A DNA stretch of 41,747 nucleotides from an uncultured Bacteroidales bacterium. GTDB taxonomy: Bacteria; Bacteroidota; Bacteroidia; Bacteroidales; UBA7960. Each line of letters begins with the position of its first letter. Position 1 is the first letter of the stretch. Under the pieces are notes generated by a model. That model was not told where the DNA came from. It made no database searches and saw only the letters and a list, made by a program, of their open reading frames with translations. The stretch covers positions 2,236 to 43,982 of the forward strand of contig CAYXIT010000017.1 of the NCBI GenBank assembly GCA_964465275.1, read 5' to 3'. Positions 868 through 21,511 of the stretch are shown here, in pieces. The translations under genes and the position numbers were made by a program.

Positions 868-885
868 ACACTTATTTTTAGATGG

Positions 886-2929: not shown

Positions 2930-2938
2930 ACTAATTTC

Positions 2939-3011
2939 ACCGCGGAGACACAGAGAACGCAAAGCAATTAATATCTCCCTGCGAACTCAGCGCACTCTGC
3001 GACTCTGCGGT
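2939..3011. repeat. REP-like element between convergent genes; may act as a bidirectional terminator
   Basis: accgcggag (2939-2947) can pair with ctctgcggt (3003-3011) with one G-U pair, followed by attttt. Inside are three copies of cYctgcgR (2977-2984, 2995-3002, 3003-3010) and acgcaaag (2957-2964). The accgcggag 9-mer recurs at 3512-3520. Confidence 0.45.
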
Positions 3012-3015
3012 ATTT

Positions 3016-3477: not shown

Positions 3478-3536
3478 GGGATGATATATTTTTGATTTAT
3501 GTTTTTTTTTAACCGCGGAGTTGCTAAACCCCAAAC

Positions 3537-4445: not shown

Positions 4446-4506
4446 GATTTCTGTGTTATAAATTGTAATTATATTGATAATTAAGAATTTGCACTAACAA
4501 ATGGCC

Positions 4507-4533
4507 AAAAAAAAGGCGGCTGATAAAGCCGCC
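4507..4533 (-). terminator. rho-independent terminator of the 4544-5899 gene
   Basis: Perfect 7-bp stem ggcggct (4515-4521) / agccgcc (4527-4533) with a 5-nt loop. The A8 run at 4507-4514 gives a U-run after the hairpin on the minus strand. It lies 11 nt beyond the stop codon. Confidence 0.75.
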
Positions 4534-4543
4534 CAATGAATAA

Positions 4544-5899: not shown

Positions 5900-6051
5900 T
5901 TGTTTTGATATTTTTTAAAGGTTAGATTTTATTTTGATTGTGAAATTTGTTTTCGCAAAAAATCCCACAAACCTACACAAATTTTGGAAAAAATTTTTAC
6001 CCGTGCAGGAATTTTTTTCCAAATGTAATTAACAGGAGAGTGAAAACAGGA

Positions 6052-6067
6052 CATCAAACCATCAACC
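6052..6067. repeat. CATCAAC-type short repeat (2 copies)
   Basis: catcaaac then catcaacc, 14 nt beyond the stop of the 6081-7097 gene. Same motif family as 1076-1105. Confidence 0.4.
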
Positions 6068-6080
6068 TTTAAAAAACTGC

Positions 6081-7097: not shown

Positions 7098-7204
7098 TGT
7101 TTTGCGGTTTTAAAGTAACGATTTTTCACTGCTAATGTAATATTTATTTATGTGAAAATTATATAGGGTTGATTTTTGATTTTAAAATGGGAAAGTGGGA
7201 TATT

Positions 7205-7395
7205 AAGGAAAGATGGAACCGCAGGGAGCGCAAGGTTTCTCGAAAGGAACGCAAGGATTCTGGTGGCCCTTCGCTCGCTTTGCGCATTCTTCGCGCCTTT
7301 GCGTGAGGAAAAACACCCGTGCCCGGATCCCACCCCTGCCTCCCTGCAAGCAGGAACCTGTCCCGTCCATGCGGATGGTGTTAAGGGCTGCTGAA
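7205..7395. repeat. GC-rich REP-like intergenic element
   Basis: Visibly more GC-rich than its flanks. CGCAAGG is in forward orientation at 7229-7235 and 7250-7256, and its inverted form (c)tttgcg is at 7279-7284 and 7296-7303. accgcaggg at 7218-7226 resembles accgcggag at 2939 and 3512. The overlapping track ORFs translate to low-complexity LCAFFAPLREEK-type strings. Confidence 0.6.
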
Positions 7396-7400
7396 GGTTG

Positions 7401-9194
7401 TCATTTTCTTTTTCTTCGTGTCTTGGTGGCTTTTTTTTCATTCGTGGCAAAAAAATACCCCTTCTGCTGTCTTTTCGCTTTATCATCACGAACAACGAAA
7501 ATTCGCTTCCCGGTGTAGGGATCAATGCCGGTATAATACATTGTAGTTGCCAGGGTCATGGGTGTAGGAGTAAATTCCTGCACCTGTTCGGGGGAGTACC
7601 CAAGTTTACTGAGCAAACGTGACAGGTCTTTCATATCACTTTCCATTGTGCCGGGATGGCCTGAAATAAAATAGGGAACCAATTGCCAGGGCAGGTTCTC
7701 TTTCCGGCAAAGGTTACGAAATTCTTCATGGAATTTTTCAAAATTGCTGAAAGAGGGTTTACGCATAATATTCAGCACTTTCGTGGATGTATGTTCGGGT
7801 GCCACTTTTAGTCTGCCTGAAACATGGCTGCGGATGAGTTTGCGGATGTAAGGTTTCAGAGCATAATCTCGGTTTTGCTGTTCGGTTTTTCCCAGCAACA
7901 TATCATAACGCACTCCACTGCCGATAGTAATCTTTTTGATGCCCTGAATTTTTTCGGCCTTCTCATACAACTGCAGAAGGGGATTATGATCAAAGTTGAG
8001 ATTTTTACACGTATTCGGGAAAATGCATGAAGGCCTTTTGCACTTTCGGCAGATCTCCTTATCAATGCCTTCCATGCGATACATATTAGCAGACGGACCG
8101 CCAAGGTCAGTGATATGACCCTTGAAGCCCGGCAATTGCGATATTTTCTCCACTTCCTTTAAAACAGACTCTTCACTTCTGCTCACTACAAATTTTCCCT
8201 GGTGCATATTGATTGCACAAAAACTGCAACCGCCAAAGCAACCCCGGTGAATATTAACTGAATGTTTTATCATTTCCCAGGCTGGTACAGGTGGCTTTTT
8301 ATCATAGTGCGGATGGGGCTTTCGTGCATAGGCTAATTCATAAGGCTCATCAGCATCTTTCCCATCCGGGATCGGGAAAGGTGGATTTACCACTATAACC
8401 TGATCATCTACCCTTTGCAACAGCCGCGGTGCTTCAATGGTGTTTGAGACTTCCTCAATCATCCGGAAAGCACTGGCAAAAGTTGTTTTATCAGCCATGC
8501 AATCATCATGAGACGGTAATTCCCTTTCTGATATATTCTTCAAAGGGGGAAGATCCTTTTGGTGCGGCCACAAAAAGCCCGTTTGAGGAATATTGTGCAG
8601 CGATGTAAGTGGCACCCCCTTTTTCATGAGAGAAATGATCATTTTCCATGCCTGCTCTCCCATACCGTAAAGCAACAGATCGGCTCCGCTTTCGGTAAGA
8701 ATGGATGGCTTAACTTTATCCTGCCAGTAATCATAATGAGTAAACCGGCGCATGGATGCCTCAACTCCGCCCAAAACCACAGGAACCTCGGGATATAGTT
8801 TTTTAAGGATTTGAGTATAAACGACTGATGCGTAGTCAGGCCGGTATCCCGGTCGCCCTCCCGGGGTATAGGCATCATCGCTGCGGCGGCGGCGCAAAGC
8901 TGTATAGTGATTTACCATAGAGTCCATGCTTCCTGCTGTAACTCCGAAAAAGTACCTGGGTACACCCAGTTTTTTGAAATCGCGCAGATCATCGCGCCAG
9001 TTGGGCTGCGGCAATATGGCAACGCGCATCCCCAGCTTTTCTGCCATACGACCCATAATTGCAGCACCAAAGGAAGGGTGATCAATATAGGCATCGCCGG
9101 TAACAATAATGATATCGGGTTGATCCCAACTTAACAATTCTATTTCATTGCGGCTTACAGGTAAAAAAGGAAGGGCAGCGTTTTCTGTTTTCAT
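7401..9194 (-). CDS. ygiQ: YgiQ-family (UPF0313) radical SAM protein
   Basis: 597 aa. The radical-SAM cluster motif appears as CFGGCSFC. The N-terminus LPVSRNEIELLSWDQPDIIIVTGDAYIDHPSFG is typical of YgiQ, and the tail is Lys/Arg-rich. Confidence 0.85.
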   Translation of the reverse strand: MKTENAALPFLPVSRNEIELLSWDQPDIIIVTGDAYIDHPSFGAAIMGRMAEKLGMRVAILPQPNWRDDLRDFKKLGVPRYFFGVTAGSMDSMVNHYTALRRRRSDDAYTPGGRPGYRPDYASVVYTQILKKLYPEVPVVLGGVEASMRRFTHYDYWQDKVKPSILTESGADLLLYGMGEQAWKMIISLMKKGVPLTSLHNIPQTGFLWPHQKDLPPLKNISERELPSHDDCMADKTTFASAFRMIEEVSNTIEAPRLLQRVDDQVIVVNPPFPIPDGKDADEPYELAYARKPHPHYDKKPPVPAWEMIKHSVNIHRGCFGGCSFCAINMHQGKFVVSRSEESVLKEVEKISQLPGFKGHITDLGGPSANMYRMEGIDKEICRKCKRPSCIFPNTCKNLNFDHNPLLQLYEKAEKIQGIKKITIGSGVRYDMLLGKTEQQNRDYALKPYIRKLIRSHVSGRLKVAPEHTSTKVLNIMRKPSFSNFEKFHEEFRNLCRKENLPWQLVPYFISGHPGTMESDMKDLSRLLSKLGYSPEQVQEFTPTPMTLATTMYYTGIDPYTGKRIFVVRDDKAKRQQKGYFFATNEKKATKTRRKRK

Positions 9195-9304
9195 GAATTG
9201 AATGTTGCCGGGTTTGCTGCAAAATTATACAAGAATTAACAATTGCCGTGGAAAAAGGAATAATGCAGCGGCAATATTTGGGAAAATAATTAAGCGGGAT
9301 TAAT

Positions 9305-9802
9305 TCAACGCCACCAGTGCAATATGCCCAGAGCAATTATACCCAGTACAAGCATTACAATAATGGTAATAATTACTTTTCGACTACGTTTTAAAAGACG
9401 GTTCTCTCTTTTTATATGATTCTCAAAACTGATGCGGCGTAAAATATTACGAATACGCTCAACTGCGCCTTCTGATTTTACCACATAATCATAAGCTCCG
9501 AGTCTGATGGTTTGTGTGGCAACCTCAAGTTTATCAACAGAGGTAAGAAATACAACTTGTACATCATCATCCTGCCTTTTTATTTCTTTAAGAACATCCA
9601 TGCCATCTTTCTTGTCTTCTCCCAAAAGGTAATCAAGTAAAATAACGTCCGGCTTCAGGTGCATATGCTTAATACATTGCTCTCCGCTGGAAAACATACG
9701 TATGTTCATATAATTTCTTTTCTCAAGACTATGGCTCAGAACCTTGGCATAGGCTTCATCATCCTCCACAATAAAAATCAGTGTATAGTCAGGCTTATTC
9801 AT
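9305..9802 (-). CDS. orphan response-regulator receiver domain with a C-terminal transmembrane helix and no output domain
   Basis: Acidic pocket IFIVEDDE, putative phospho-acceptor Asp in DVILLDYLL, then FLTSV and YDYVVK. The protein ends in RKVIITIIVMLVLGIIALGILHWWR, a hydrophobic helix. Confidence 0.8.
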   Translation of the reverse strand: MNKPDYTLIFIVEDDEAYAKVLSHSLEKRNYMNIRMFSSGEQCIKHMHLKPDVILLDYLLGEDKKDGMDVLKEIKRQDDDVQVVFLTSVDKLEVATQTIRLGAYDYVVKSEGAVERIRNILRRISFENHIKRENRLLKRSRKVIITIIVMLVLGIIALGILHWWR

Positions 9803-10078
9803 ACACCCTTTTTAAATGATACTTTATATACGTTAACGAATTTAATACATTTTTTTAATGATATTTGGAATTAAAAAATAAAAACTTAACTTGCAGCCCG
9901 AAAACCAGAAATACATCCTTTCATCCCGATCCGAAAACAGCAAAAAAGTATTATATGAAATTTTTATGCAGACTGAATAAAAATAAGAGCATATATGTAC
10001 TGATTAACAGATTTTTACCTTTTTATTTAACCTGATTTTAAAAACAGGCAGATTCTTCTTCAATCCGCTTCGTATTTA

Positions 10079-10086
10079 TATATTTG
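10079..10086 (+). promoter_or_regulatory. candidate -7 promoter element (TATATTTG) for the cytochrome/sulfur operon
   Basis: Perfect TAnnTTTG match 97 nt upstream of the ATG at 10184, inside a 381-bp AT-rich divergent intergenic region. No convincing -33 TTTG was found. Confidence 0.3.
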
Positions 10087-10183
10087 CCTAATTAGATATG
10101 TTGGCAATATTTCATTGTATATGCATATAACAATCAATTAAATACCAACAGCTTAACCCTATCAGCAATATAATTTTAATTGT

Positions 10184-11761
10184 ATGAAGAATACCGTAAC
10201 ATTTATTCTTTCGGTTGTTGTACCCCTGGTGATTATTACTGTTGTATTACGGGATGCATCGCAGGACAACAAACTTCTGGCTGAATTGAAAGAAGAATAC
10301 AGCGAGCCGCACATTCCCAGTGTTGATCACAGCAAGCATGAGGTATTGCAACGTGATTTCGACAATCCCCATGAAATCACAGCCACATGTCTATCATGCC
10401 ATACCGAGCGTGGCGAAGAATTGCTCAACAGCTTTCATTTCACATGGGAAAGGGAAGATTTTATTGAGGGCAGAGGAGTAACATACCTTGGAAAGAAAAA
10501 CCTGTTAAATAACTTCTGCACAGGTATTTTCTCCAATGAATCTACCTGTAACCGCTGCCACGCAGGATATGGATGGGAAGATATGAGTTTTGATTTTACC
10601 AACCAGTACAATGTGGATTGCCTGGTTTGTCATGACAATACCGGTACCTATGAAAAACTAAGGGGTGGAGCGGGCTATCCCGAACCCAACCAGGATTTTC
10701 AAACCATTGTGCAAAATGTTGGAAGACCTACGAAAAGCAATTGCGGATATTGTCACTTCCACGGAGGCGGAGGTAATAACGTAAAGCACGGCGACCTTGA
10801 AGAAGCCCTGCTTACTGCTTCGCGCCAGGTAGATGTGCATATGGGCGTAGACGGTGGAAATATGGACTGTGTAGATTGCCATACAGCTACCAATCATAAG
10901 ATGCTTGGAAGATACTATGGTGTATCATCATCCGATACGCGGCGTGCAACCTGCGAGCAATGCCATACTGCAGTACCCCACATTGATAATATGCTCAATA
11001 CACATGTTGAAAAAATTGCCTGTCAAACCTGCCATATACCGGAATATGCCAAAGTTAATGCTACCAAAATGTACTGGGACTGGTCAACTGCCGGTGAACT
11101 GGAAGACGGAAGAGCTTTTGAACTTTACGATGAACAGGGTAACATCATTTATCAATCCATTAAAGGTGATGCTACCTGGCAAACCAATGTGGAACCCGAA
11201 TACCTCTGGTTTAACGGCACAGCTGATCACTTCCTTTTATCGGATAAGGTTGATACGACAGCAGCTTTTCTAAAGATCAATACACTTTTGGGAAATGCTG
11301 CCGATCCCAGGTCGCGTATTTACCCTGTTAAGGTACACCGTGGCCGCCAACCTTACGATCCTGTGCATCTTTCTATTTTACAGGCCAAACTCTGGGATCG
11401 TGAAGAAGGTAAAGGAGCACTCTGGCTCGACCTTGACTGGGAAAGAGCTCTGATTGAAGGAATGAAATACCTTGACAGACCTTACAGCGGGCAGTGGGAT
11501 TTCGTTGATACCGAGATGTACCTTCCGGTAAATCATATGGTTTCACCTGCCAGTGAAGCATTGCAATGCCAGGACTGTCATTCGCGTGAAAACGGACGTA
11601 TGCAGTTTGTTGAAGGAACTTACATACCGGGCAAAACTTCAAAGGCTGCAATCGACAATTTAGGTGTAGTGCTCATCATACTTTCATTTTTGGGTGTACT
11701 AACCCATGCTGTCATAAGATTTATTTCCTCAAAAAAACTGAAAGATTCAACTTCTGATTAA
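10184..11761 (+). CDS. octaheme c-type cytochrome, tetrathionate reductase (Otr) family, with N- and C-terminal hydrophobic helices
   Basis: Eight CXXCH motifs: CLSCH, CNRCH, CLVCH, CGYCH, CVDCH, CEQCH, CQTCH, CQDCH. Otr-like signatures are NNFCTGIFSNESTCNRCHAGYGW, CLVCHDNTGTY and CHFHGGGGNNVKHGDLE. N-terminal helix is FILSVVVPLVIITVVL; C-terminal helix is LGVVLIILSFLGVLTHAVIRFI, followed by KKLK. Confidence 0.85.
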   Translation: MKNTVTFILSVVVPLVIITVVLRDASQDNKLLAELKEEYSEPHIPSVDHSKHEVLQRDFDNPHEITATCLSCHTERGEELLNSFHFTWEREDFIEGRGVTYLGKKNLLNNFCTGIFSNESTCNRCHAGYGWEDMSFDFTNQYNVDCLVCHDNTGTYEKLRGGAGYPEPNQDFQTIVQNVGRPTKSNCGYCHFHGGGGNNVKHGDLEEALLTASRQVDVHMGVDGGNMDCVDCHTATNHKMLGRYYGVSSSDTRRATCEQCHTAVPHIDNMLNTHVEKIACQTCHIPEYAKVNATKMYWDWSTAGELEDGRAFELYDEQGNIIYQSIKGDATWQTNVEPEYLWFNGTADHFLLSDKVDTTAAFLKINTLLGNAADPRSRIYPVKVHRGRQPYDPVHLSILQAKLWDREEGKGALWLDLDWERALIEGMKYLDRPYSGQWDFVDTEMYLPVNHMVSPASEALQCQDCHSRENGRMQFVEGTYIPGKTSKAAIDNLGVVLIILSFLGVLTHAVIRFISSKKLKDSTSD

Positions 11762-11771
11762 TTTAACAGCC

Positions 11772-12503
11772 ATGGCAAAAAAAGAAAAAGTATATATATA
11801 TAAATCTTACGAAAGATTCTGGCACTGGACCCAGGCTTTTCTTGTGTTTTTTCTTGCATTAACCGGCTTTGAAGTGCATGGTTCCTTTACCTTCTTTGGA
11901 TTTGAAGATGCCGTTGACCTCCATAACAAGGCAGCCTGGGCATTTATCATTCTTACCATATTTACCATCTTCTGGCATTTTACCACAGGTGAATGGAAAC
12001 AATACATGCCCACTACAGAAAACCTGAGGGCGCAGGCAGAGTATTATATTTTTGGTATTTTCCGTAATGCTCCCCATCCTACACGTAAAACTGTACTCAG
12101 CAAACTTAATCCCCTGCAAAGATTGGTTTATCTTTCTTTGAAAATACTGGTGTTTCCGGTTATGATAGCCAGTGGACTGGCTTATATGTATTACCGGTTT
12201 TTCGGCCAGGGAGAAGTAAAACAACTGGGAATTGAAAGCCTGGAAAGAGTTGCCCTGGCACATACCATCGGGGCATATATTCTTATTGCTTTTGTTATTG
12301 TACATTTATATTTGATTACTACAGGGCATACGCTTACATCAAACCTGAAAGCGATGATTACGGGGTGGGAAGAACTGGAATCAGATGAGGGTGAAGTTCC
12401 TGAATCAGAAACATCTAAAGATCCTGTCGGAGAAAGAATAGATAAACCTGGTGATACTTCAAAAGTTAAACCAGATAGCTATGATGATAAAACGGAAATT
12501 TAA
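11772..12503 (+). CDS. membrane cytochrome b subunit (Ni/Fe-hydrogenase/thiosulfate-reductase b-type cytochrome family)
   Basis: About four TM helices with conserved His positions (ERFWHWTQAFLVFF, DLHNKAAW, LAHTIGAYILIAFVIVHLY). It starts 10 nt after the cytochrome c stop and has an acidic C-terminal tail. Confidence 0.75.
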   Translation: MAKKEKVYIYKSYERFWHWTQAFLVFFLALTGFEVHGSFTFFGFEDAVDLHNKAAWAFIILTIFTIFWHFTTGEWKQYMPTTENLRAQAEYYIFGIFRNAPHPTRKTVLSKLNPLQRLVYLSLKILVFPVMIASGLAYMYYRFFGQGEVKQLGIESLERVALAHTIGAYILIAFVIVHLYLITTGHTLTSNLKAMITGWEELESDEGEVPESETSKDPVGERIDKPGDTSKVKPDSYDDKTEI

Positions 12504-12519
12504 ACCAACTCACAAAAAC

Positions 12520-13767
12520 ATGAAAAGGTTTACAATCTTTACTGCATTGCTGGCAATATCCTTAGCAGCCGGCGCACAACTCTCACTTAATGCAGATATT
12601 AGCCCGCGTGCTGAACTCAGGCATGGATACAGAACCCTTCCCGGGCCCAATGATGAGGCAGCAGGTCATATAAACCAAAGAACCCGTCTGGGACTTGGTT
12701 ATGATGTTGAGAATTTTCGCCTGCATATTTCATTTCAGGATGTAAGAGTATGGGGGCAGGATCCTTTGCTTACAAACATCCCATCTCTGTCTGTTCATGA
12801 AGCATGGGCTGAGATGATGTTTAACAACAATCTTTCCCTGAAGATTGGCCGTCAGGAATTGAAATACGATAACCAGCGTTTTCTTTCTTTCAACGACTGG
12901 CAGGTATATGGGCGGAAGCATGATCTGGCTCTGCTGAAATTCAAATCCGATATATGGGAGTTACACGTTGCTTCAGCTTTCAACCAGGAATGGTCTGCTT
13001 ACACCCAACTTTTCGGAACTGATTATGATATTCCCAGTTATAAACTCATGAATTTTGTCTGGTATAACACCCGTCTTTCCGAAACAGCAAAACTATCGCT
13101 GCTTGCCCTGTTTGACAGTTATGAAAATCCGGGAAACAGTGAGCAATTAAATACAAGAGCTACGTGGTCAGCATATCTGAATATGGATATTGATGCTGTT
13201 AATCTTGTTTTTAACCCGGCCTATCAGCACGGAAAAAACCGTTTCGGCAATGGTATAAGAGCGTTTTATTTCAGACTTGAAGGAAGCATGGGTGTTGCTG
13301 ACAATGTAAGATCAACCCTGGGGATGGAACTTTTTTCAGGAAATGATTACACTGACCTTTCTGATGATACAAATCGTGCATTTGATCCATTATATGGTGC
13401 CGGGCATGCCAATGCCGGTTTTATGGATTACTTCACAAATATACCCGTGAATACTGCCGGTGCCGGTTTGGTGAATCCTTACCTGAAAAACCGCATTCGT
13501 CTGAACCCACGCACCGCGTTTAATGCTGATCTGCATTTTTTCTTCCTGCAAAACAATTACGTTCAGAACAACGAAACCATCAATAAATACCTGGGTACCG
13601 AAATTGACCTTACACTCAACTACAGGTTTAATGATTTTACAAATATAATCGGTGGATTTTCAACAATGTTCGGGTCAGAATCCATGGAAATAATAAAAGG
13701 GGGCAGCAAGGATGAGTTTGCTTACTTCATGTATGTAATGATGAGAATAAGGCCCAGGTTCTTATAA
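12520..13767 (+). CDS. outer-membrane porin, alginate-export-like beta-barrel
   Basis: The start was moved to the ATG at 12520, which gives signal peptide MKRFTIFTALLAISLAAGAQ. The track ORF start at 12451 would overlap the cytochrome b gene. It has beta-barrel-like alternating segments and ends in an aromatic-containing motif (MRIRPRFL). The family assignment is recalled, not verified. Confidence 0.65.
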   Translation: MKRFTIFTALLAISLAAGAQLSLNADISPRAELRHGYRTLPGPNDEAAGHINQRTRLGLGYDVENFRLHISFQDVRVWGQDPLLTNIPSLSVHEAWAEMMFNNNLSLKIGRQELKYDNQRFLSFNDWQVYGRKHDLALLKFKSDIWELHVASAFNQEWSAYTQLFGTDYDIPSYKLMNFVWYNTRLSETAKLSLLALFDSYENPGNSEQLNTRATWSAYLNMDIDAVNLVFNPAYQHGKNRFGNGIRAFYFRLEGSMGVADNVRSTLGMELFSGNDYTDLSDDTNRAFDPLYGAGHANAGFMDYFTNIPVNTAGAGLVNPYLKNRIRLNPRTAFNADLHFFFLQNNYVQNNETINKYLGTEIDLTLNYRFNDFTNIIGGFSTMFGSESMEIIKGGSKDEFAYFMYVMMRIRPRFL

Positions 13768-13806
13768 CCAGGAAATACAATTCAAACCAAATAAAAATAT
13801 TAAACT

Positions 13807-14892
13807 ATGAAACGTATACATTTTTTTCGTCTGGCATTATTGCTTCTCCTGATCCCGGTATTGCTGGTTTCCTGTTCAGAAAGACAAGCCCAAACCGAAC
13901 AGGAAAGTGAAATAAACGAAGTAGAAATCCTTTTGCAATATCTTGAGGAGAACGGAAATATTGTAAATGAACCTTCCATTCCTTTTTTTGTAAATGCCGA
14001 AGAGGTTCACAACAACATGAACGGATCCAACTATCATGTTGTGGATGTAAGGTCACCACGTGAATTCAAACGCGGTCATATTGAAAATGCCGTGAATGTG
14101 CAACCCGAAAATATCCTGGATTATTTTGAGAACAGAATTGAACCCAACAGCTTTGAAAAAATTGTTATTGTTTGTAACAACTCTATGCTTTCGGGTTATG
14201 TAACAGCAATTTTAAGAATGCTGGGTTACAATAATACCTTTAACATGCGTTTTGGCCTGAGTTCATGGCACGATGATATTGCACGCCGTGCATGGTTTGC
14301 GAATATTTCCAGTGATCTGGTGGGCAGGCTTGAAACCACACCCCATCCCAAAAATGATCCCGGCAGTCTGCCGGTAATTAATACCGGCAAGACCAGCGGA
14401 TACGATATCCTGAGAGAACGGGCCCTGGAAGCACTAAATATCAACTGGGATGATGTAAGCATCAATTATCTTGATATTATTGAGGAGGCAGAGAACTATT
14501 ATGTAATAAATTACTGGCCTCAGGCATTATATGATCAGGGACACCTGCCGGGAGCCATTCAATACAATCCCAAGAAATCATTTCACAGTGAAGAGGATAT
14601 TTTTACCCTACCTGTCGATCAACCTTTGGTGGTATATTGTTTTACAGGTCAAAATGCAGCCTATGCAAGTGCATTCCTTTCTCTGATGGGGTATGATTTC
14701 AGAAGTCTTGATTATGGTGCCAACAGCTTTATTCACGAAACCATGATCAATACCCAACCTGCTGGCAGGGCTTTTTCAGAGATTCATGTAAAAAATTACC
14801 CCCTGGTAAGGGACGGGCTCCTTCAACCTGCAGATCCCGCAGCTCAACCTGAAGAGAAAGAGGAGGTGGTTACGGCGCAGGGAGGATGCTAG
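13807..14892 (+). CDS. lipoprotein with tandem rhodanese domains and a C-terminal -AQGGC tail
   Basis: Lipobox LLVSC. Two rhodanese modules: HVVDVRSPREFKRGHIENAVNV...IVIVCNNSMLS and ...QGHLPGAIQY...VVYCFTGQNAAYA. A Pro/Glu-rich linker LLQPADPAAQPEEKEEVVT precedes the terminal AQGGC. Confidence 0.8.
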   Translation: MKRIHFFRLALLLLLIPVLLVSCSERQAQTEQESEINEVEILLQYLEENGNIVNEPSIPFFVNAEEVHNNMNGSNYHVVDVRSPREFKRGHIENAVNVQPENILDYFENRIEPNSFEKIVIVCNNSMLSGYVTAILRMLGYNNTFNMRFGLSSWHDDIARRAWFANISSDLVGRLETTPHPKNDPGSLPVINTGKTSGYDILRERALEALNINWDDVSINYLDIIEEAENYYVINYWPQALYDQGHLPGAIQYNPKKSFHSEEDIFTLPVDQPLVVYCFTGQNAAYASAFLSLMGYDFRSLDYGANSFIHETMINTQPAGRAFSEIHVKNYPLVRDGLLQPADPAAQPEEKEEVVTAQGGC

Positions 14893-14903
14893 GGAAGTAG
14901 AAT

Positions 14904-15118
14904 GGTTATTGGGTTAGTAAGTTATTAGGGTTTTAGTTTAATGAGTAGTAAAGGATTTAGCTGCAGAGCAGCGACAATATTTGTAATCATTTTCATTGCA
15001 CTAAAGTACTCAATGGATCTATTGCCTATTTGAAAAAAGCCAAAGAAGAAAACACTATAAAGAAAACCTAAATAACCCATTAACCCAATAACTCAATAAC
15101 CTAATAACTCAATAACCC
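14904..15118. repeat. inverted arrays of an 8-mer (AATAACYY) flanking about 140 nt; candidate long hairpin or MITE-like element
   Basis: The right arm has six tandem 8-mers at 15071-15118 (aataaccc attaaccc aataactc aataacct aataactc aataaccc), ending 6 nt before the ATG at 15125. The left arm, 14904-14932 (ggttatt gggttagt aagttatt agggtt), is the imperfect reverse complement. An inner 5-bp hairpin gctgc-aga-gcagc lies at 14961-14973. Confidence 0.7.
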
Positions 15119-15124
15119 ATACAT

Positions 15125-15679
15125 ATGCAAAATAAACCAACCCCAAACCGAGCCCCTGGCGAGCTCAGCGAAGCTAAACCCTTTATGAACCCATACCTGG
15201 CAGGTTTTCTGCTGGGACTGGTTTTACTGGCATCATTTGTTATAGTGGGTCGTGGCCTGGGTGCCAGTGGCGCCGCAAAGGATGTAATGGTAGCAGGAGT
15301 AATGAACGCAGCACCTGAATATGTTCAGGAGAAACCCTTCTATGAGCCGTATCTTGCAGCCGAAGAAAGCCCGATACGCTCCTGGCTGGTTTATCTGGCC
15401 ATTGGCGTGATTGTTGGCGGCTTTGTTAGCGGTGCCTCATCAAATCGTTTAGGATTTAAAATGGAACGCGGACCGCGCATCAATGCTCCTACCCGGGCAA
15501 TTTTTGCCCTTGCAGGCGGATTATTGTTCGGACTGGGTGCCCAGTTCGGCCGGGGCTGCACAAGTGGTGCGGCATTAAGCGGAATGGCGGTACTTTCTAC
15601 CGGCGGCATCCTTACCATAATGATGATATTTGGCAGCGGATACCTGGTCGCTTACTTTTTCAGGAGGTTGTGGATATAG
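15125..15679 (+). CDS. YeeE/YedE-family sulfur-compound transport protein, first half-channel
   Basis: About four hydrophobic segments with family motifs VGRGLGASGA and GRGCTSGAALSG. This second motif holds the only Cys in the protein. Confidence 0.8.
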   Translation: MQNKPTPNRAPGELSEAKPFMNPYLAGFLLGLVLLASFVIVGRGLGASGAAKDVMVAGVMNAAPEYVQEKPFYEPYLAAEESPIRSWLVYLAIGVIVGGFVSGASSNRLGFKMERGPRINAPTRAIFALAGGLLFGLGAQFGRGCTSGAALSGMAVLSTGGILTIMMIFGSGYLVAYFFRRLWI

Positions 15680-15680
15680 C

Positions 15681-15769
15681 GGAAGGCATGAAAAAAATGG
15701 GGTATCGAAATAAATCAAAATTTCGAAATTCGAAATTCGAAATTTAAACCCATGAATCCGAATGCCTCC
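15681..15769. repeat. 7-bp tandem repeat (TCGAAAT x3 plus one extra copy) enclosed by an imperfect inverted repeat
   Basis: tcgaaat occurs at 15723-15729, 15730-15736 and 15737-15743, with another copy at 15705-15711. The flanks can pair: ggaaggcat (15681-15689) with atgcctcc (15762-15769), and atggg (15697-15701) with cccat (15749-15753). Confidence 0.65.
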
Positions 15770-15817
15770 ATCATACTTAGATATTTCAGCAAAAAATAAT
15801 ATAAAACAAACAAACAT

Positions 15818-17047
15818 ATGGCACCTTTTATCCCCGAAGGATTAGTAAATCCCCAACTGAGTCTGTTCTTTGCCCTGGTACTGGGTATTGGTTTCGGTTA
15901 TGCGCTTGAACAGGCCGGTTTTTCATCATCACGTAAGCTGGCCGGTGTATTTTACGGCTATGACTTTGTTGTATTGCGTGTGTTTTTCACTGCAGGTATT
16001 ACAGCCATGATCGGACTGCTATTTCTCAGCTTTATGGGTTGGATTGATATGAGCCTTGTATATATTAACCCGCTTTATGTATGGTCGGCAATAATAGGCG
16101 GAGCCATTATGGGAGTCGGTTTTATACTGGGTGGTTATTGCCCCGGCACCAGTATTGTAGCTGCTACTGTGGGCAAAATTGATGCAATGCTTTTTCTGGC
16201 CGGCTCTGTAATTGGCATTTTCCTTTTCGCTCATTTTTACAGCATATTTGAACCCCTGCATATGGGGTATTTTGAAGGAAATCCATTTATCTATGAAACT
16301 TTTGGAATATCAAGGGCGTGGTTCGGATTCATTATGGTTATGATGGCAGTAATTGCATTTGCCGTAACCCAGCGTATTGAAGACAGGGTTAACAATACAC
16401 CTCCTGCTGTTATTGAGCAGCGCCCGTCATATATAATGCCCGGAATGTTGCTTATCATAGCTATTTTTGCGTTCCTTTTCCTTCCCGAGCAAAGAAAAAG
16501 CAATGCACGTGAAATACCGCCAGATCAATTGCATAGTATGCTCCAGGATGATAAGCGTTTTGTGGATGCTGAAGAGGCAGCGTACAAAATAATCAACGAA
16601 GACCGCAACTTCATTCTTATTGATGTGCGTGAACCCGAAGAGTTTGAAAGATTCTCACTCCCCGGTTCCGTCAATATTACCAAAGATGAAATATTGGGTC
16701 GCAGATACCGTGATTTCTTCAGTGATGCTCCACCTCACAGCAAAAGGGTATTCTATGGTTTTGGTGAGAGTGCTGCAGATCTGGCATGGACAGTGGCTGC
16801 ACGGGCAGGATTTGAAAATATATTTGTGCTGCAGGGCGGATTGAACGGAATGTTTGAGACCCTGTTCAATGGCAACGTGAAACCCGAAGATCATTTAAGT
16901 CTTGATGAAGAATTTGAAACAAGGTTCAGGGCCGAAGCAAGACGATTATTCCTTGAAGGGGAAGCCGTTCCAACTGAACCACAAACACCCGTGCCTATAC
17001 GCACAGTAATTGAATTAGAAACTCCTGGCGGAAGAGGAGGATGTTAA
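15818..17047 (+). CDS. YeeE/YedE second half-channel fused to a rhodanese-like domain lacking the active-site Cys, with a C-terminal -GRGGC tail
   Basis: The N-terminal part (about 225 aa) has about six hydrophobic helices and the motif GFILGGYCPGTS. The C-terminal rhodanese fold reads ILIDVREPEEFERFSLPGSVNI...RVFYGFGESAADLAW...VLQGGLNGM, with Gly where the catalytic Cys normally sits. A Pro-rich linker follows, and the protein ends PGGRGGC. It has only two Cys in total. Confidence 0.8.
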   Translation: MAPFIPEGLVNPQLSLFFALVLGIGFGYALEQAGFSSSRKLAGVFYGYDFVVLRVFFTAGITAMIGLLFLSFMGWIDMSLVYINPLYVWSAIIGGAIMGVGFILGGYCPGTSIVAATVGKIDAMLFLAGSVIGIFLFAHFYSIFEPLHMGYFEGNPFIYETFGISRAWFGFIMVMMAVIAFAVTQRIEDRVNNTPPAVIEQRPSYIMPGMLLIIAIFAFLFLPEQRKSNAREIPPDQLHSMLQDDKRFVDAEEAAYKIINEDRNFILIDVREPEEFERFSLPGSVNITKDEILGRRYRDFFSDAPPHSKRVFYGFGESAADLAWTVAARAGFENIFVLQGGLNGMFETLFNGNVKPEDHLSLDEEFETRFRAEARRLFLEGEAVPTEPQTPVPIRTVIELETPGGRGGC

Positions 17048-17066
17048 ACAACAAAATGATGATATT

Positions 17067-17690
17067 ATGAACTTCAATAAAAATCTAAACAACATCAGTA
17101 TACTGTTTTTCAGTTTTGTTGCCATCATTGTGGTGATCAATCTTTTTACCACAAAAAACTACGGCAGATCAAACGATGAGGTGGTAAGGCTTCTGGATAC
17201 CCATGAATATATGCTTGACTATTATGAACTGCGTAATGCAATATCACAACAGGCTGACAATTACTTATTTATTGATCTGCGAACTGAAACAGAATACGAG
17301 TCAGGTCATATACCCGGAGCAATTAACATTCCCTTTGATCAGTTGCTCGAGAGCAGGAATATAAAAACTGTCAAAAGATCAGGCGATCAAATACCAGTAT
17401 TGTATGCCGGATCAGAATCAAAAGCACAAACTGCCCGTATGTTGCTTCTGGCAAAAGGTCTGGATGCCGGCATCAGGGTAATGGGTGGCAACTACAACAC
17501 AGCTGTGGAGTTTGCCATTGAAGATTTTAAGCCTGCCTTTGCAGCCTATAAAGATGAAAAAGCCAGGTTTGACTACCGCAGATTCATGCGACCCTCCCCT
17601 ACCGGCCAACCTGCTAAAAAACGAGATCAACCGGCAGGTATTATTCCTGCAGTAAATCAACAAACACTCTCTGCTCAGGGTGGTTGCTGA
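17067..17690 (+). CDS. membrane-anchored rhodanese-like protein lacking the active-site Cys, with a C-terminal -AQGGC tail
   Basis: N-terminal anchor ISILFFSFVAIIVVINLF. Rhodanese fold LFIDLRTETEYESGHIPGAINIPF...VLYAGSESKAQTA, with Ala at the catalytic position. A Pro/Gln-rich linker follows, and the protein ends SAQGGC. The terminal Cys is its only cysteine. Confidence 0.8.
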   Translation: MNFNKNLNNISILFFSFVAIIVVINLFTTKNYGRSNDEVVRLLDTHEYMLDYYELRNAISQQADNYLFIDLRTETEYESGHIPGAINIPFDQLLESRNIKTVKRSGDQIPVLYAGSESKAQTARMLLLAKGLDAGIRVMGGNYNTAVEFAIEDFKPAFAAYKDEKARFDYRRFMRPSPTGQPAKKRDQPAGIIPAVNQQTLSAQGGC

Positions 17691-17699
17691 TAATTAGTT

Positions 17700-17745
17700 G
17701 GGGTTACCGGTTAAGAAATTCTCTTAGGGTAACCCCGTTTTATTT
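17700..17745 (+). terminator. rho-independent terminator closing the sulfur/cytochrome operon
   Basis: Perfect 9-bp stem ggggttacc (17700-17708) / ggtaacccc (17728-17736). An inner 5-bp stem pairs taaga with tctta. The hairpin is followed by gttttattt and starts 10 nt after the stop codon. Confidence 0.8.
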
Positions 17746-17840
17746 AGTTGATATTATTGCCGGTTTATTAATGGCTTCATTGGATTGTGATTTTGCCATT
17801 TTTTTCTTATTTTTAGGAGACAAACGTGAAACTATTTTCG

Positions 17841-20327
17841 ATGGCAATGAATTTCCAGAACAATCCTCAATTACAACTGGCTCACGATTTTGTTGAGCAA
17901 ACCGGCATGAATATTTTTCTTACCGGCCGGGCAGGCACAGGTAAAACCACTTTTCTGCAATACATCAGATCAAATTCTTTCAAACGTTCTGTGGTGGTTG
18001 CACCCACAGGTGTTGCCGCTATCAATGCAGGCGGAGTAACAATACACTCTTTTTTCCAGCTCCCTTTCGGTCCTATTTTACCTGAAGACTCAGAATTCAG
18101 GAGGCAACAGGAAGATCATCGCTTCCATAAACTCAACAAAGAAAAGATCAATATCATCCGCAGTCTCGATCTGCTTATCATTGATGAGATAAGCATGGTG
18201 CGGGCCGATCTTCTGGACGGAATTGATCAGGTGCTGCGACGCTATCGCAACCGGTATAAACCTTTTGGTGGATTACAACTCCTGCTCATCGGCGACCTTC
18301 AGCAATTGGCACCGGTGGTAAAAGATGATGATACTGCCCTGTTGGGAAAATATTACGACAACTTCTTTTTCTTTGGTAGCAAAGCATTACAACAAACAAA
18401 ATACATCAGCATTGAACTTCAGCAAATATACAGGCAAACCGATAAGGAATTCATAGATTTGCTGAACAGAGTGCGAAACAATCAACTTGATCAATATTAC
18501 CTTCAGAAACTTAACCGCCAATACAGGCCCGGCTTTATGCCGGATGAAGATGAAGGATACATAACTCTTACCACCCATAATCAACAGGCCGCACAGATCA
18601 ACCAGACAAGATTAAGATCCTTACGCAGTAGTGTAAGATTCTTTAAAGCATATATTGATGGTGACTTCCCTGAAATGGCCTATCCTACAGAAGAAAGCCT
18701 GAGTCTCAAAACCGGTGCCCAGGTTATGTTTGTAAAGAACGACCCTTCTCCTGAAAAACTTTTCTATAACGGCAAGATTGGAGTAGTGGAAAGTATGGAA
18801 GATGATATGATTTATGTTAAATGCCCCGGAGAGGATTCACTGATAGCCGTAACACCTCTCATGTGGGAAAACCGTCGCTACAAACTAGACCCCGACACCA
18901 AAGAGATACGCGAAAACGTGATCGGTACCTTTACCCAATATCCTTTAAAACTGGCCTGGGCCATTACCATACATAAAAGCCAGGGATTAACCTTTGAGAA
19001 AGCTATAATTGATGCGCAGGCAGCCTTTGCACACGGCCAGGTATATGTAGCACTGAGCCGCTGCAAAACACTCGAAGGACTTGTGCTGAGTTCACGAATC
19101 TCAGGTCAGGCCATAAAAAGCGACATGAGCGTAAAAGATTTTTCTTTTAATATTAAGCAAAATCAGCCTGACGAACAAGTACTTTCCGGTGCACGACTGC
19201 AATTCCAGCATGAGCTGCTCGATGAACTGTTTGACTTCGATCCTGTTCAGCGTCGTCTGAATTATTTGCAAAAGCTCGTCAAAGAAAACATTGGCTCCAT
19301 TGATGAAGGAATCGCTGATATGCTGAAACCTCTCAGTAAAGAACTGGAGGACCTGGCAGGCGTGGGGTCAAAGTTCATGGTGGAGATCAGCAAACATGTA
19401 AAAAATTACGGGCAGATAGAAAATAATATAGCGTTGCAGGATCGTATCAGGAAGGCTTGCAGCTATTTCATTCCCCGGCTCGAAAAGGAAGTGATAAACA
19501 TACTTGAAAATGTAGTGATTGACAGCGATAACAAGCAGGTAAAGAAATCCCTTACCGAAGCTTATGATCGTCTTTTTCATGAGGGAGAGCTGAAACTTGC
19601 CTGCCTGAATGCCTGCACCGAAGGCTTTAAAACCGCAAACTACCTGGAAGTGAGAGCCAAAGCATCCATTGAAAAGACCCGCAGCCGTGAACGAAAACCC
19701 GGCAAATTTGCTGCAGTTTCTGATGTTTCGAACCATCCGCAGCTTCTTGAACAACTGCGCAACTGGCGCAACAGGGCTGCCGTTGAACTTGGCATTCCCA
19801 TTTTCATGATCCTGCCGCGCAAATCCATGATTTCCATCACCAACGAGTTGCCTGCATCTCTCAAGGCACTGAAAGCCATCTATGGCATGGGAAAGAAAAA
19901 GACTGAACAGTTTGGCCCCGATATCATTTCCATCGTGCAGGAATACTGTGCCAACAATGATCTGCAGCCCCAATATGATGCACCCGATACCGGCAAGCCC
20001 GAAAAAAAGCCCAAAGAGAGAAAAAAACCTTCGGCTGAGACCAGCCTTGAGCTTTACAGGCAGGGCAAAACCGTCGGGGAGATTGCAAAGGAAAGAGAAC
20101 TGGCCAAAAGCACCATTGAAGGACATCTCGCCAATTATATTGCTAACGGCGAGATCCCGGTGGAAGATATTGTAACCCCTGAAAAGATACAACCCCTTAT
20201 GGACTATTTTTCAAAATCGGAAGATCACAGCTTGAGCCTTGCACGACAAACCCTGGGAAATGAGTATTCATACCAGGAGATCAGATGTGTTCTGAGCCAC
20301 TACAGGTATAAAAATCAGCTCTTATAA
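17841..20327 (+). CDS. Pif1/RecD-like superfamily-1 helicase with a C-terminal HRDC-like region and a helix-turn-helix region
   Basis: Walker A is LTGRAGTGKTT and Walker B is LLIIDEISMV. AITIHKSQGLTF and VALSRC are typical of Pif1/RecD. The HRDC-like segment is LLEQLRNWRNRAAVELGIPIFMILPRKSM...IYGMGKKKTEQFG, and the HTH-like segment is LYRQGKTVGEIAKERELAKSTIEGHL. The start was set at the first ATG (17841); the track start at 17826 is GTG. Confidence 0.8.
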   Translation: MAMNFQNNPQLQLAHDFVEQTGMNIFLTGRAGTGKTTFLQYIRSNSFKRSVVVAPTGVAAINAGGVTIHSFFQLPFGPILPEDSEFRRQQEDHRFHKLNKEKINIIRSLDLLIIDEISMVRADLLDGIDQVLRRYRNRYKPFGGLQLLLIGDLQQLAPVVKDDDTALLGKYYDNFFFFGSKALQQTKYISIELQQIYRQTDKEFIDLLNRVRNNQLDQYYLQKLNRQYRPGFMPDEDEGYITLTTHNQQAAQINQTRLRSLRSSVRFFKAYIDGDFPEMAYPTEESLSLKTGAQVMFVKNDPSPEKLFYNGKIGVVESMEDDMIYVKCPGEDSLIAVTPLMWENRRYKLDPDTKEIRENVIGTFTQYPLKLAWAITIHKSQGLTFEKAIIDAQAAFAHGQVYVALSRCKTLEGLVLSSRISGQAIKSDMSVKDFSFNIKQNQPDEQVLSGARLQFQHELLDELFDFDPVQRRLNYLQKLVKENIGSIDEGIADMLKPLSKELEDLAGVGSKFMVEISKHVKNYGQIENNIALQDRIRKACSYFIPRLEKEVINILENVVIDSDNKQVKKSLTEAYDRLFHEGELKLACLNACTEGFKTANYLEVRAKASIEKTRSRERKPGKFAAVSDVSNHPQLLEQLRNWRNRAAVELGIPIFMILPRKSMISITNELPASLKALKAIYGMGKKKTEQFGPDIISIVQEYCANNDLQPQYDAPDTGKPEKKPKERKKPSAETSLELYRQGKTVGEIAKERELAKSTIEGHLANYIANGEIPVEDIVTPEKIQPLMDYFSKSEDHSLSLARQTLGNEYSYQEIRCVLSHYRYKNQLL

Positions 20328-20347
20328 TTTCTGAACCTAAAGGCTTC

Positions 20348-21511
20348 TCACATTTCCATATACAATTCCAGCACATTGACCAATTGATCAATTTCCCTGA
20401 AGTTGTTGAAAAAATTGCATGCTATTCTGATATTTCCAGCCCTTAGAGAAGTAACAATATTATGTTTACGTAAAAAATCCACAGCAGATGCATTATCTGC
20501 TTCCCTTAAACTGATAAGGATAATAGCAGAACGATGGCGGCGTTCTTTAACCGGAGATATCACATCTACAGGTAGTTCACTGAGTTGCTCCAACAGATAA
20601 CCGGTCAGTTGCTCTATCCTTTCCCTGATCTTTTCGCGCCCGATTTCTTTAAAAAATTCAATTCCGGTATCGAGCCCCAATAAGGCCTGAAAATTCATAG
20701 TACCGAAATTATATTGTTCAGCAGTATCAAAAGCCTTGTATTTCACGTTTTTTTGGGTGGGAATAAAATCATCCTCCGGAGGTTCTACTGATAACCATCC
20801 GGCCATTGCACCGGGGTATTTTTTCCTGAAATCTTCAGAAGTAAAGAACAGCGTTCCGGCCACAGCACATAACCCCCATTTATGGAATGAAACCGTCATT
20901 ACATCAATATGCATTTCCTTTACATCAACCTCATAAACCGGAAAAGCCTGTGTTGCATTCACGATAAATAACAAGCCCTTTTCTTTCAAAGCTTTACCAA
21001 GTTTCTCCATTTCTAACATAAAACCGGTTGAATATTGCACATAACTGCAAACCACTCCCAGCGTTTTGTCATCAACGGCATCAAGGATCTTTTCTGCGGA
21101 ATAAATCCCCTCTTCGGGCTCAACAAATTTCATAGGAATTCCCTGGAACTCAAATGGGATATGCGATGCCGGAAACTCATCCTGCAGAGAAACCAGGTTA
21201 AAATCTTCCTTCGCAGCCGACTTTTTCAATGCTGCTGCCACAAAGCTGAAGGCTGTGGATGAATTGTGGGCAAAAACAACATTGTCCCGGACAGTATTGA
21301 TCATCTCAGCCAGTTTTCCTCTCAGAACATTGGTACGTTCCAGGTCATCAAGGAAGTACATATCACCAAACCGGTTCAGCTTCTCATATGCATTTACAAC
21401 AGTTTTGAAAACCCGCGTAGGGATCGGACTCATTCCGGCACTGTGAAAATACGCCAGATTTTTTGTTACCGGGAACTCTTCACGTATTTCATCCCAGAAT
21501 TTTTCATCCAT
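20348..21511 (-). CDS. class V aminotransferase-fold PLP-dependent enzyme
   Basis: 387 aa. The PLP-lysine context is MTVSFHKWG, and the C-terminal motif is RAGNIRIACNFFNNFREID. I did not find a SufS/NifS-type catalytic Cys loop. Confidence 0.7.
   Translation of the reverse strand: MDEKFWDEIREEFPVTKNLAYFHSAGMSPIPTRVFKTVVNAYEKLNRFGDMYFLDDLERTNVLRGKLAEMINTVRDNVVFAHNSSTAFSFVAAALKKSAAKEDFNLVSLQDEFPASHIPFEFQGIPMKFVEPEEGIYSAEKILDAVDDKTLGVVCSYVQYSTGFMLEMEKLGKALKEKGLLFIVNATQAFPVYEVDVKEMHIDVMTVSFHKWGLCAVAGTLFFTSEDFRKKYPGAMAGWLSVEPPEDDFIPTQKNVKYKAFDTAEQYNFGTMNFQALLGLDTGIEFFKEIGREKIRERIEQLTGYLLEQLSELPVDVISPVKERRHRSAIILISLREADNASAVDFLRKHNIVTSLRAGNIRIACNFFNNFREIDQLVNVLELYMEM

Follow-up and report, generated by a model that had tools for sequence, protein, structure and literature searches.

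Sud of Wolinella succinogenes is a soluble, periplasmic, rhodanese-fold polysulfide-sulfur transferase, the cysteine of which – situated in the canonical active-site loop – delivers sulfur to a membrane polysulfide reductase. DsrC and TusE are cytoplasmic and carry a flexible C-terminal arm, where a cysteine persulfide or trisulfide is reduced by a membrane complex (DsrC has two cysteines per arm). In SoxY, Sox intermediates are held on the cysteine of a swinging arm: the C-terminus is GGCGG, the canonical arm motif is VTIGGC, and 'GGC' is in use as a functional signature of the protein. A hand-over from SoxYZ to the YeeE-like SoxT has been proposed (PMC11582611), and in the YeeE-YeeD (TsuA-TsuB) pair the channel is linked, and sometimes fused, to a small sulfur acceptor with a single cysteine (PMC11073785). 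In Geobacter, the porin ExtI and the rhodanese-like lipoprotein ExtH are linked to selenite uptake in work that PMC13510729 cites; the pentahaem cytochrome MccSep, for which S-S cleavage through a chalcogen intermediate bound to cysteine or selenocysteine (Sec) is proposed, also reduces selenite (PMC13510729). Here we compare with these systems three neighbouring rhodanese proteins that end in Gly-Gly-Cys (GGC) and are encoded in a 41,747-nucleotide (nt) stretch of DNA from an uncultured Bacteroidales bacterium (contig CAYXIT010000017.1; the whole stretch is referred to as the window), beside an Otr-family cytochrome and a split YeeE channel.

In the translated open reading frames (ORFs) the three products – of 361, 409 and 207 amino acids (aa) – end ...EEVVTAQGGC, ...LETPGGRGGC and ...QTLSAQGGC, respectively, and all three contain the PF00581 rhodanese domain (E-values of 5e-32, with two domains, 7e-13 and 5e-12). 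Before its stop codon the first gene reads GGA GGA TGC, the second GGA GGA TGT and the third GGT GGT TGC. Cysteines are few: four in the 361-aa protein, two in the 409-aa protein (C108, within the GGYCPG motif of its YeeE half, and the terminal C409) and one in the 207-aa protein. Six-frame translation of the window gives 404 ORFs of at least 30 aa, three of which end in GGC – exactly the three rhodanese proteins – and none in GG. Outside the family, 80 related loci (see below) contain 1519 ORFs of 100 aa or more; a single one of these ends in GGC, probably a spurious ORF in antisense orientation. The GGC ending on three rhodanese proteins is real and far from chance.

An original prediction, made from the sequence of the window, had drawn attention to these tails, and its description of them agrees with our counts: three neighbouring rhodanese proteins with free GGC ends, as both translations and PF00581 matches have it; tail codons that differ (on re-reading, the same codons were obtained); no other such end in the window; a terminal cysteine that is the only one in the 207-aa protein; and a 409-aa fusion with two, the other within GGYCPG. 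GGC ends common among unrelated proteins, which it had named as an outcome that would speak against it, are not seen in these ORF counts. Its further statement, that no rhodanese family with a GGC arm had been described, also holds for the sources covered here: the three proteins match Pfam and NCBIfam models above cut-off only through generic rhodanese and Sulf_transp domains, and full-text searching of the open-access literature returned no description of GGC-tailed rhodaneses. On the best reading, what would be new is a C-terminal cysteine carrier arm on a rhodanese scaffold, in a reductive context.

Conservation of the ending was assessed in relatives of all three proteins. A genome scan gave 384 stretches encoding relatives of the 409-aa fusion protein, and the best 80 were taken as loci; almost all are from metagenome-assembled genomes (MAGs) of Bacteroidales, Lentimicrobiaceae, Rikenellaceae and Tenuifilaceae, with one isolate, Yeosuana aromativorans. 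The GGC ending is found in every one of the 32 full-length orthologues of the 207-aa protein, even at 36% identity; in the family alignment G205 never varies, and G206 and C207 hardly do. In the fusion family the ending is present in 116 of 120 homologues; the other four are two truncated sequences and two with AGC or VGC instead. For homologues of the 361-aa protein – a lipoprotein – the figure is 99 of 120; five more have one residue past the motif (GGCG three times, GGCN and GGCI), and there is one EGC and one GGG. Short relatives of the 207-aa type were sought with an exhaustive profile search against 1.84 billion representative sequences (50% identity level): the best 150 hits include 86 such relatives with less than 50% mutual identity, and GGC is last in 78 of them, is followed by one residue in two and is replaced by SGC in one. 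The 80 loci hold 235 family ORFs, of which 209 have GGC as their last residues and 11 more have one residue beyond it. The expectation that Gly-Gly-Cys is invariant and always last thus stands in a softened form: the motif is near-invariant and terminal, but in some 5% of tails one more residue follows (GGCS, GGCG, GGCA, GGCN or GGCI) and one lipoprotein sub-clade has no tail. No frameshifted remnant of a tail was found in tail-less members. A selenocysteine variant of the tail was considered and rejected, there being no family ORF with GG followed by an in-frame TGA. In two soda-lake Bacteroidales MAGs (L022 and L024) both the lipoprotein and the YeeE-rhodanese fusion are cleanly tail-less; Otr and cytochrome b were not detected upstream in either, and the third rhodanese alone retains PVIGGC. 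In these two genomes tail loss is correlated with loss of the reductase.

The anatomy of the proteins differs in one important respect. A cysteine in the active-site loop, the mark of a catalytic rhodanese, is present only in the 361-aa lipoprotein, which has one in each domain (C123 and C278); both, together with C23 of its LVSC lipobox signal peptide, are at least 90% conserved among homologues. In the 207-aa family the corresponding position is an invariant tyrosine (Tyr113) in a Y-x-x-x-E-S loop that includes a glutamate, and the loop of the 409-aa protein, FYGFGES (FYSxGxS as consensus), again has an invariant tyrosine at the cysteine position and no cysteine. To judge from these loops, the 207-aa and 409-aa proteins are not catalytic rhodaneses in the classical sense. 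This replacement of cysteine by tyrosine was overlooked in the original prediction. Since the loop cysteine is missing from both families, the arm would provide their only reactive extracytoplasmic thiol.

Single-chain AlphaFold2 models show where two of the arms begin. The lipoprotein (mean predicted local distance difference test score, pLDDT, of 90.5 overall) is folded from residue 38 to 335 and unstructured from 336 to 361, where pLDDT falls from 79 to 48. In the fusion protein a rhodanese domain at pLDDT ~90 is followed by a helix (362-380, ~80) and then by an unstructured arm (381-409, 61 falling to 46); its YeeE half is poorly modelled without a partner. Counted from the last folded motif to the terminus, the arm measures 31 residues in the 207-aa family (interquartile range, IQR, 29-32), 28 in the fusion family (IQR 28-28) and 27 in the lipoprotein family (IQR 26-28), and its sequence is variable. 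The tails had been presented as Pro/Glu/Gln-rich linkers of low complexity; the low complexity is evident, but the proline content is only moderate (7-14%, besides E, A, T, V, Q and K), and on these models the arms appear better described as low-complexity, disordered tethers of constrained length than as Pro-rich linkers. Foldseek and PDB sequence searches returned generic rhodaneses only, with no entry covering the arm.

On which side of the membrane do the arms lie? StYeeE has its N-terminus outside and its C-terminus inside, with helix H7 inverting the topology of the second half (PMC7449682). In the fusion family (n = 72), the mean number of lysines plus arginines in successive loops is 0.0, 2.0, 0.03, 1.0, 0.1 and 3.5: by the positive-inside rule this alternation places the N-terminus outside, the loop between transmembrane helices (TM) 5 and 6 inside, and the rhodanese domain and arm that follow TM6 in the periplasm. 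TM5 resembles H7, and TM6 is an additional helix ahead of the rhodanese domain. The 184-aa YeeE half encoded upstream is N-in/C-in, with 1.7, 4.3 and 2.0 lysines plus arginines on its predicted inside segments. Where the fusion is split, TM6 and the rhodanese domain form a separate, N-terminally anchored protein like the 207-aa protein, and in six members of the anchored family (P0350, P0351, P0355, P0366, P0390 and P0410) a lipobox signal peptide takes the place of the anchor. Taken together, loop charges, the lipobox of the 361-aa protein and these lipoprotein variants predict that all three arms are periplasmic. The charge pattern and the lipoprotein variants likewise rule out an arm that acts as a cytoplasmic acceptor of the YeeD/TsuB type.

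The three tails of a genome also resemble each other. The residues before GGC are alike in the three proteins of a single genome: PVIGGC occurs three times in L012, the triplets are VPR/AAR/VPR in L052, and TVS/SVS/EVS in L070. Residue -1 is identical between paralogues in 26 of 47, 23 of 49 and 22 of 57 unique tail combinations, compared to about six expected (P<2e-4 by permutation, a test that is not corrected for phylogeny). Such co-variation would be expected if all arms must fit one shared site. Recent gene conversion is not indicated as the source of the similarity, given that identical tail residues share a codon in 377 of 876 cases (43%) compared to an expected 334 (38%); a possible exception is L088, where two tails have 12 identical residues (KKKKKLPIEGGC in both). 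Because same-codon use is close to background, the similarity appears to be kept at the level of the peptide, which is what the original prediction had concluded – likeness of peptides and not of recently duplicated DNA – from the three tails of the window.

The genes lie in one co-directional cluster (10184-17690) that comprises, in order, Otr, cytochrome b, porin, lipoprotein, the first YeeE half (YeeE_A), the fusion of the second half with a rhodanese (YeeE_B::Rhd) and the 207-aa rhodanese; two genes further downstream, for a helicase and an aminotransferase, complete the nine window ORFs between 10184 and 21511, and the products of all nine are thereby assigned. Otr scores 562 bits against TIGR04315 (cut-off 375), which places it in that family, and 418 bits against PDB 1SP3, with GKKN and NNFC conserved. 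Across the family (n = 56) the sixteen haem cysteines, the lysine haem ligand K104 and C112 are invariant. Cys112 (nt 10517-10519), the single cysteine outside the eight CXXCH motifs, is also present in Shewanella OTR (1SP3, NNFC). The C-terminal TM helix of Otr is encoded at 11650-11761, and in L051 Otr is fused to cytochrome b in a 754-aa protein. Among NCBIfam models the cytochrome b comes closest to that for the thiosulfate reductase cytochrome b subunit, without reaching its cut-off; this cytochrome b is presumed to be the quinol oxidase that feeds Otr. The YeeE/YedE channel (PF04143) is split into two four-TM halves with one pore cysteine each: the lone cysteine of the 184-aa half, in GRGCTSG, is equivalent to StYeeE Cys293, and that of the 409-aa protein, in GGYCPG, to Cys91. 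The equivalence of the halves to PmpB and PmpA is based on PmpAB, a split form of YeeE (PMC11582611).

This linkage extends to the related loci, whose ORFs were compared to the window's own proteins and to the Psr-like set of Yeosuana. Otr, cytochrome b and the lipoprotein are found, in conserved gene order, in 44 of the 49 loci with enough upstream DNA; the porin is found in 8 of the same 49 (the closest relatives and a few others). The full cluster also occurs in a Flavobacterium MAG found outside the 80 loci. In three loci (L077, L079 and L080, Yeosuana) there is no Otr: unfused YeeE_A, YeeE_B and a TM-anchored rhodanese ending in GGC follow instead a Psr/Phs-like enzyme encoded by genes for a PhsA-like molybdoenzyme, an NrfC/TtrB-like iron-sulfur protein and an NrfD-like membrane subunit, and each of the three has a second TM-rhodanese with GGC. 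Indeed, every unfused YeeE plus TM-rhodanese module comes after such a PhsA-like, iron-sulfur, NrfD-like enzyme. In L088 a Psr-like enzyme is followed by two TM-rhodaneses, both ending KKKKKLPIEGGC, with no YeeE. The common denominator of the modules would seem to be a quinol-linked periplasmic S-S reductase plus membrane-tethered GGC-rhodaneses, YeeE being usual and the tail of the lipoprotein optional.

Several other arrangements were seen among these loci. Three Lentimicrobiaceae MAGs (L056, L059 and L063) carry two complete modules in tandem at ~100-11900: the first consists of Psr/Phs-like ABC, YeeE_A, YeeE_B and a TM-rhodanese ending in GGCS, and the second, directly after it, of Otr, cytochrome b, lipoprotein, YeeE_A, YeeE_B::Rhd and rhodanese. 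Downstream in L088 (12678-14477) are genes for a Pyr_redox_2 flavoprotein, a DsrC-family protein (102 aa, ending ...KPKSCI) and a DsrE-like protein; the three may represent a cytoplasmic set for sulfur relay encoded close by. In L080 (Yeosuana aromativorans) a 629-aa multihaem cytochrome (3618-5507, minus strand) is divergent from the Psr-like/YeeE/GGC-rhodanese module; it matches the NCBIfam model ExtM ('selenite/tellurite reduction operon c-type cytochrome') with 242 bits, below cut-off, and L077 has a homologue. An apparent second Otr in L028 was considered as a Sec-interrupted Otr and rejected: it is an unrelated multihaem lipoprotein.

How, then, does the locus compare to the described systems? 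With SoxY the three proteins share a periplasmic (predicted) location and a single reactive cysteine in a Gly-Gly-Cys at the extreme C-terminus of a mobile arm, and the SoxY motif VTIGGC resembles their ..VTAQGGC, ..TVIGGC and ..PVIGGC. They differ in fold (rhodanese, with no SoxY family among the Pfam and NCBIfam hits), in the ~27-31 disordered residues before the motif, and in that the cysteine is normally last: GGC is present and terminal, but the trailing Gly-Gly of GGCGG is found only in P0324, a three-domain relative ending in SSGGCGG that is the only such member, and GGCG or GGCS in a few. Context differs too, being oxidative for SoxY and reductive here (Otr/Psr-like enzymes plus a quinol-oxidising subunit). 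The role of Sud fits the linkage of GGC-rhodaneses to Psr-like enzymes and Otr; however, tyrosine replaces the loop cysteine in two of the three proteins, with the thiol on a C-terminal arm, and Sud (PDB 1QXN) is not among the PDB sequence matches at E≤0.01. Likeness to DsrC and TusE is functional only (a flexible C-terminal arm with a sulfur-carrying cysteine): the three proteins have no PF04358 match, one cysteine per arm, arms on separate proteins and a periplasmic location. As in YeeE-YeeD, a channel of the YeeE family is joined genetically, and sometimes physically, to a putative sulfur-acceptor domain, but YeeD is TusA-like, cytoplasmic and placed after the inward C-terminus of YeeE, whereas the domain here is a rhodanese brought to the periplasm by an extra TM helix; the channel, moreover, is split like PmpAB and unlike that of the YeeE-YeeD pair. 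Geobacter offers the combination of porin, rhodanese-like lipoprotein (ExtH with ExtI) and periplasmic multihaem cytochrome (MccSep) for sulfur or selenite reduction; MccSep is a pentahaem Sec enzyme and Otr an octahaem one, and the window lipoprotein matches no NCBIfam rhodanese model above cut-off. On family profiles and topology the three proteins are not SoxY, DsrC/TusE or YeeD, and would work most like SoxY and Sud.

We propose that the GGC tails are periplasmic swinging-arm carrier thiols on rhodanese scaffolds, which would handle sulfane or thiosulfonate sulfur for a quinol-dependent periplasmic S-S reductase in a module conserved among Bacteroidota, and assign this reading a probability of about 0.55. 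Tetrathionate, polysulfide or thiosulfate would enter the periplasm, in this lineage via the adjacent porin. The two catalytic rhodanese sites of the lipoprotein, or direct attack by the arm thiol, would then load the terminal cysteine, giving a persulfide, a polysulfide or an S-thiosulfonate. The two arms tethered to the inner membrane (those of the YeeE fusion and the 207-aa protein), hanging from catalytically dead rhodanese domains via fixed linkers of ~28-31 residues, would present this sulfur to the active site of a membrane-bound reductase – Otr-cytochrome b here, a PsrABC/PhsABC-like enzyme in other genomes – and might also offer it at the outer vestibule of the split YeeE, whose two pore cysteines would relay it inward. 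What we infer is which chemistry takes place, who the partners are and which way sulfur is passed. In favour of the reading are the conservation of GGC, the terminal cysteine as only extracytoplasmic thiol of the 207-aa and 409-aa families, the predicted flexibility and periplasmic side of the arms, the linkage of the genes and the way the tails co-vary. A 2026 review (PMC13188914) lists Sec variants for the YeeE pore cysteine (GUxSG) and for cytochromes of TIGR04315, which fits nucleophilic or redox roles of those residues. The original prediction, that the tails carry persulfide, thiosulfonate or polysulfide between envelope components, gains from conservation, predicted flexibility, periplasmic side and genomic context; the loading with sulfur is the part that we infer.

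A number of observations weigh against this proposal. One lipoprotein sub-clade (of ~327-345 aa) is tail-less, the protein stopping directly after the second rhodanese domain, and in L088 the TM-rhodanese pair is followed by two tail-less tandem-rhodanese lipoproteins and a porin: in the lipoprotein the tail is optional. At least one single-domain GGC-tailed rhodanese lipoprotein occurs in an unrelated gene neighbourhood. Free periplasmic thiols would need to be shielded from oxidation. In the single-chain models of the 409-aa and 361-aa proteins neither tail docks on anything, and in YeeE_A, YeeE_B, Otr, cytochrome b and the lipoprotein no charge-compensating column that tracks residue -1 stands out (|r| up to ~0.5); to these must be added the want of a phylogenetic correction in the permutation test.

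A sharper version of the carrier reading, rather than a contradiction of it, is a redox couple of the DsrC type, in which the two tethered arms are joined by a disulfide, trisulfide or polysulfide bridge, and it is this bridge that Otr or the Psr-like enzyme would actually reduce. The arm thiols, once restored, would in turn reduce S0, polysulfide or tetrathionate from outside, either chemically or via the lipoprotein. A pair of TM-rhodaneses with GGC is present in nearly every locus, even without YeeE, and paired tails co-vary, to the point of the 12 identical residues of L088 (KKKKKLPIEGGC twice). The invariant non-haem Cys112 of Otr lies near the motif of the Lys-ligated haem, and S-S cleavage by MccSep is proposed to pass through a Cys/Sec-bound intermediate (PMC13510729). 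But that the two tethered proteins interact is itself conjecture, the lipoprotein bears a third, similar arm, lone GGC-rhodaneses exist, and the literature found does not establish a role for Cys112 in Otr catalysis. We therefore regard the couple as possible but rather unlikely. The same tentative standing is given to the wider view that in these Bacteroidota the physiological substrate of the Otr-type cytochromes and the Psr/Phs-like enzymes is no free anion but protein-bound sulfur on paired, membrane-tethered GGC arms – a periplasmic, 'heterodisulfide-like' respiration of persulfide or trisulfide on proteins – with leftover sulfur passed to the split YeeE by cysteine relay.

The carrier arms might alternatively handle selenium or tellurium, binding selenite-derived selenium (as selenotrisulfide or perselenide) within a module that reduces or imports it, in the manner of Geobacter Ext and YedE. 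The YedE/YeeE family has selenium-linked members, to which NCBIfam matches are weak; the divergently encoded multihaem cytochrome beside the module of Yeosuana scores against ExtM, albeit below cut-off; the ExtI/ExtH pair is linked to selenite uptake in work that PMC13510729 cites, and MccSep reduces selenite too (PMC13510729). The reductases, however, best match enzymes for sulfur compounds (Otr, PhsA), neither selD, selA, Sec-insertion genes nor a Sec codon is present in tails or window, and the arm motif matches that of SoxY, which is a sulfur carrier. This makes a selenium function distinctly improbable.

More doubtful again is that GGC carries nothing, and is a tag for sorting, processing or lipidation, or else a metal or haem ligand for a partner. 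One processing enzyme or binding site could recognise a motif that is strictly terminal and preceded by a residue that co-varies per genome; yet no conserved protease, transferase or sortase-like gene is found in the 80 loci, GGC is confined to rhodanese proteins beside sulfur reductases or YeeE, all eight Otr haems have their CXXCH with the Lys ligand conserved, and one residue after the cysteine is tolerated (GGCS, GGCG). Least probable of all is that the arm folds back to supply the missing catalytic cysteine, making the proteins ordinary thiosulfate sulfurtransferases: the 207-aa and 409-aa families do have a well-folded rhodanese domain without loop cysteine, but the lipoprotein has an arm despite both catalytic cysteines, the former active-site loop has an invariant tyrosine and a conserved glutamate (Y-x-x-x-E-S), the AlphaFold2 models show no fold-back, and a linker of 28-31 residues far exceeds what folding back needs.

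Table 1. Coordinates in the window of the genes of the cluster and of the three C-terminal arms.
Feature	Coordinates	Strand	Evidence
Otr-family octahaem c-type cytochrome, N-terminal signal/anchor, C-terminal TM helix	10184..11761	+	TIGR04315
Membrane cytochrome b, PhsC/Ni_hydr_CYTB-like	11772..12503	+	PF01292 at 4.6e-28
Outer-membrane beta-barrel, Alginate_exp-like porin	12520..13767	+	PF13372 at 1e-9
Lipoprotein (361 aa), two catalytic-type rhodanese domains, lipobox Cys23, Cys123, Cys278	13807..14892	+	PF00581 x2
Lipoprotein C-terminal arm, residues 336-361, GGC end	14812..14889	+	pLDDT drop, 99/120 homologues
YeeE/PmpA-like half-channel, 184 aa, ~ C-terminal half of TsuA	15125..15679	+	PF04143 positions 176-308
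YeeE/PmpB-like half-channel + TM5 + TM6 + periplasmic (predicted) rhodanese (409 aa)	15818..17047	+	PF04143 positions 10-161, PF00581
Fusion-protein C-terminal arm, residues 381-409, GGC end	16958..17044	+	pLDDT drop, 116/120 homologues
TM-anchored rhodanese, 207 aa, no catalytic Cys (Tyr113)	17067..17690	+	PF00581, orthologue alignment
207-aa protein C-terminal arm, residues 176-207, GGC end	17592..17687	+	32/32 orthologues

The surroundings of the cluster (Table 1) have features of their own. A 165-aa receiver-only response regulator (PF00072) is encoded on the minus strand at 9305-9802, divergent from Otr across an intergenic region of 381 nt, and could be a local regulator of the cluster. 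Downstream, at 17826-21511, a PIF1/HRDC-type helicase (833 aa) is followed on the opposite strand by a class-V aminotransferase (387 aa, of the cysteine-desulfurase-like fold family). Both are present in most of the closest relatives (L001-L009) with downstream DNA and rarely in distant loci, and their neighbourhood probably reflects lineage synteny and not a functional link. Within the cluster, the 232-nt gap between the lipoprotein and YeeE_A genes contains six tandem 8-nt units (AATAACYC) at 15063-15126 and, at 14904-14958, the inverted complement of this array (arms of 55 nt, 73% complementary, 104 nt apart). With up to one mismatch, TTATTGGGTTA occurs eight times in the window compared to 1.55 expected, six of the eight lying inside the gap. 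In L001 (94% identical) the same arrays flank a gap of 592 nt; most other loci have only 10-80 nt there. The arrays may have a regulatory function or mark a small palindromic insertion. Scanned against Rfam, positions 9700-18000 gave nothing credible.

Otr was reportedly characterized in vitro some 20 years ago, and its in vivo role and substrate are said to be unclear. For MccSep, the authors of the 2026 study state that the route by which sulfur is delivered to the reductase is unknown (PMC13510729). An easily recognised arm beside reductases and YeeE provides concrete, testable components for this question of delivery, and in no small number: the anchored form alone comprises at least 78 clusters at 50% identity, and one carrier, Yeosuana aromativorans JCM 12862, is in culture. 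If the carrier reading is true, the swinging-arm principle of SoxY, an oxidative one, would apply in reductive sulfur metabolism as well and on a new scaffold, the loss of the catalytic cysteine from two rhodanese domains would be accounted for, and proteins now labelled only 'rhodanese-like domain-containing protein' could be better annotated.

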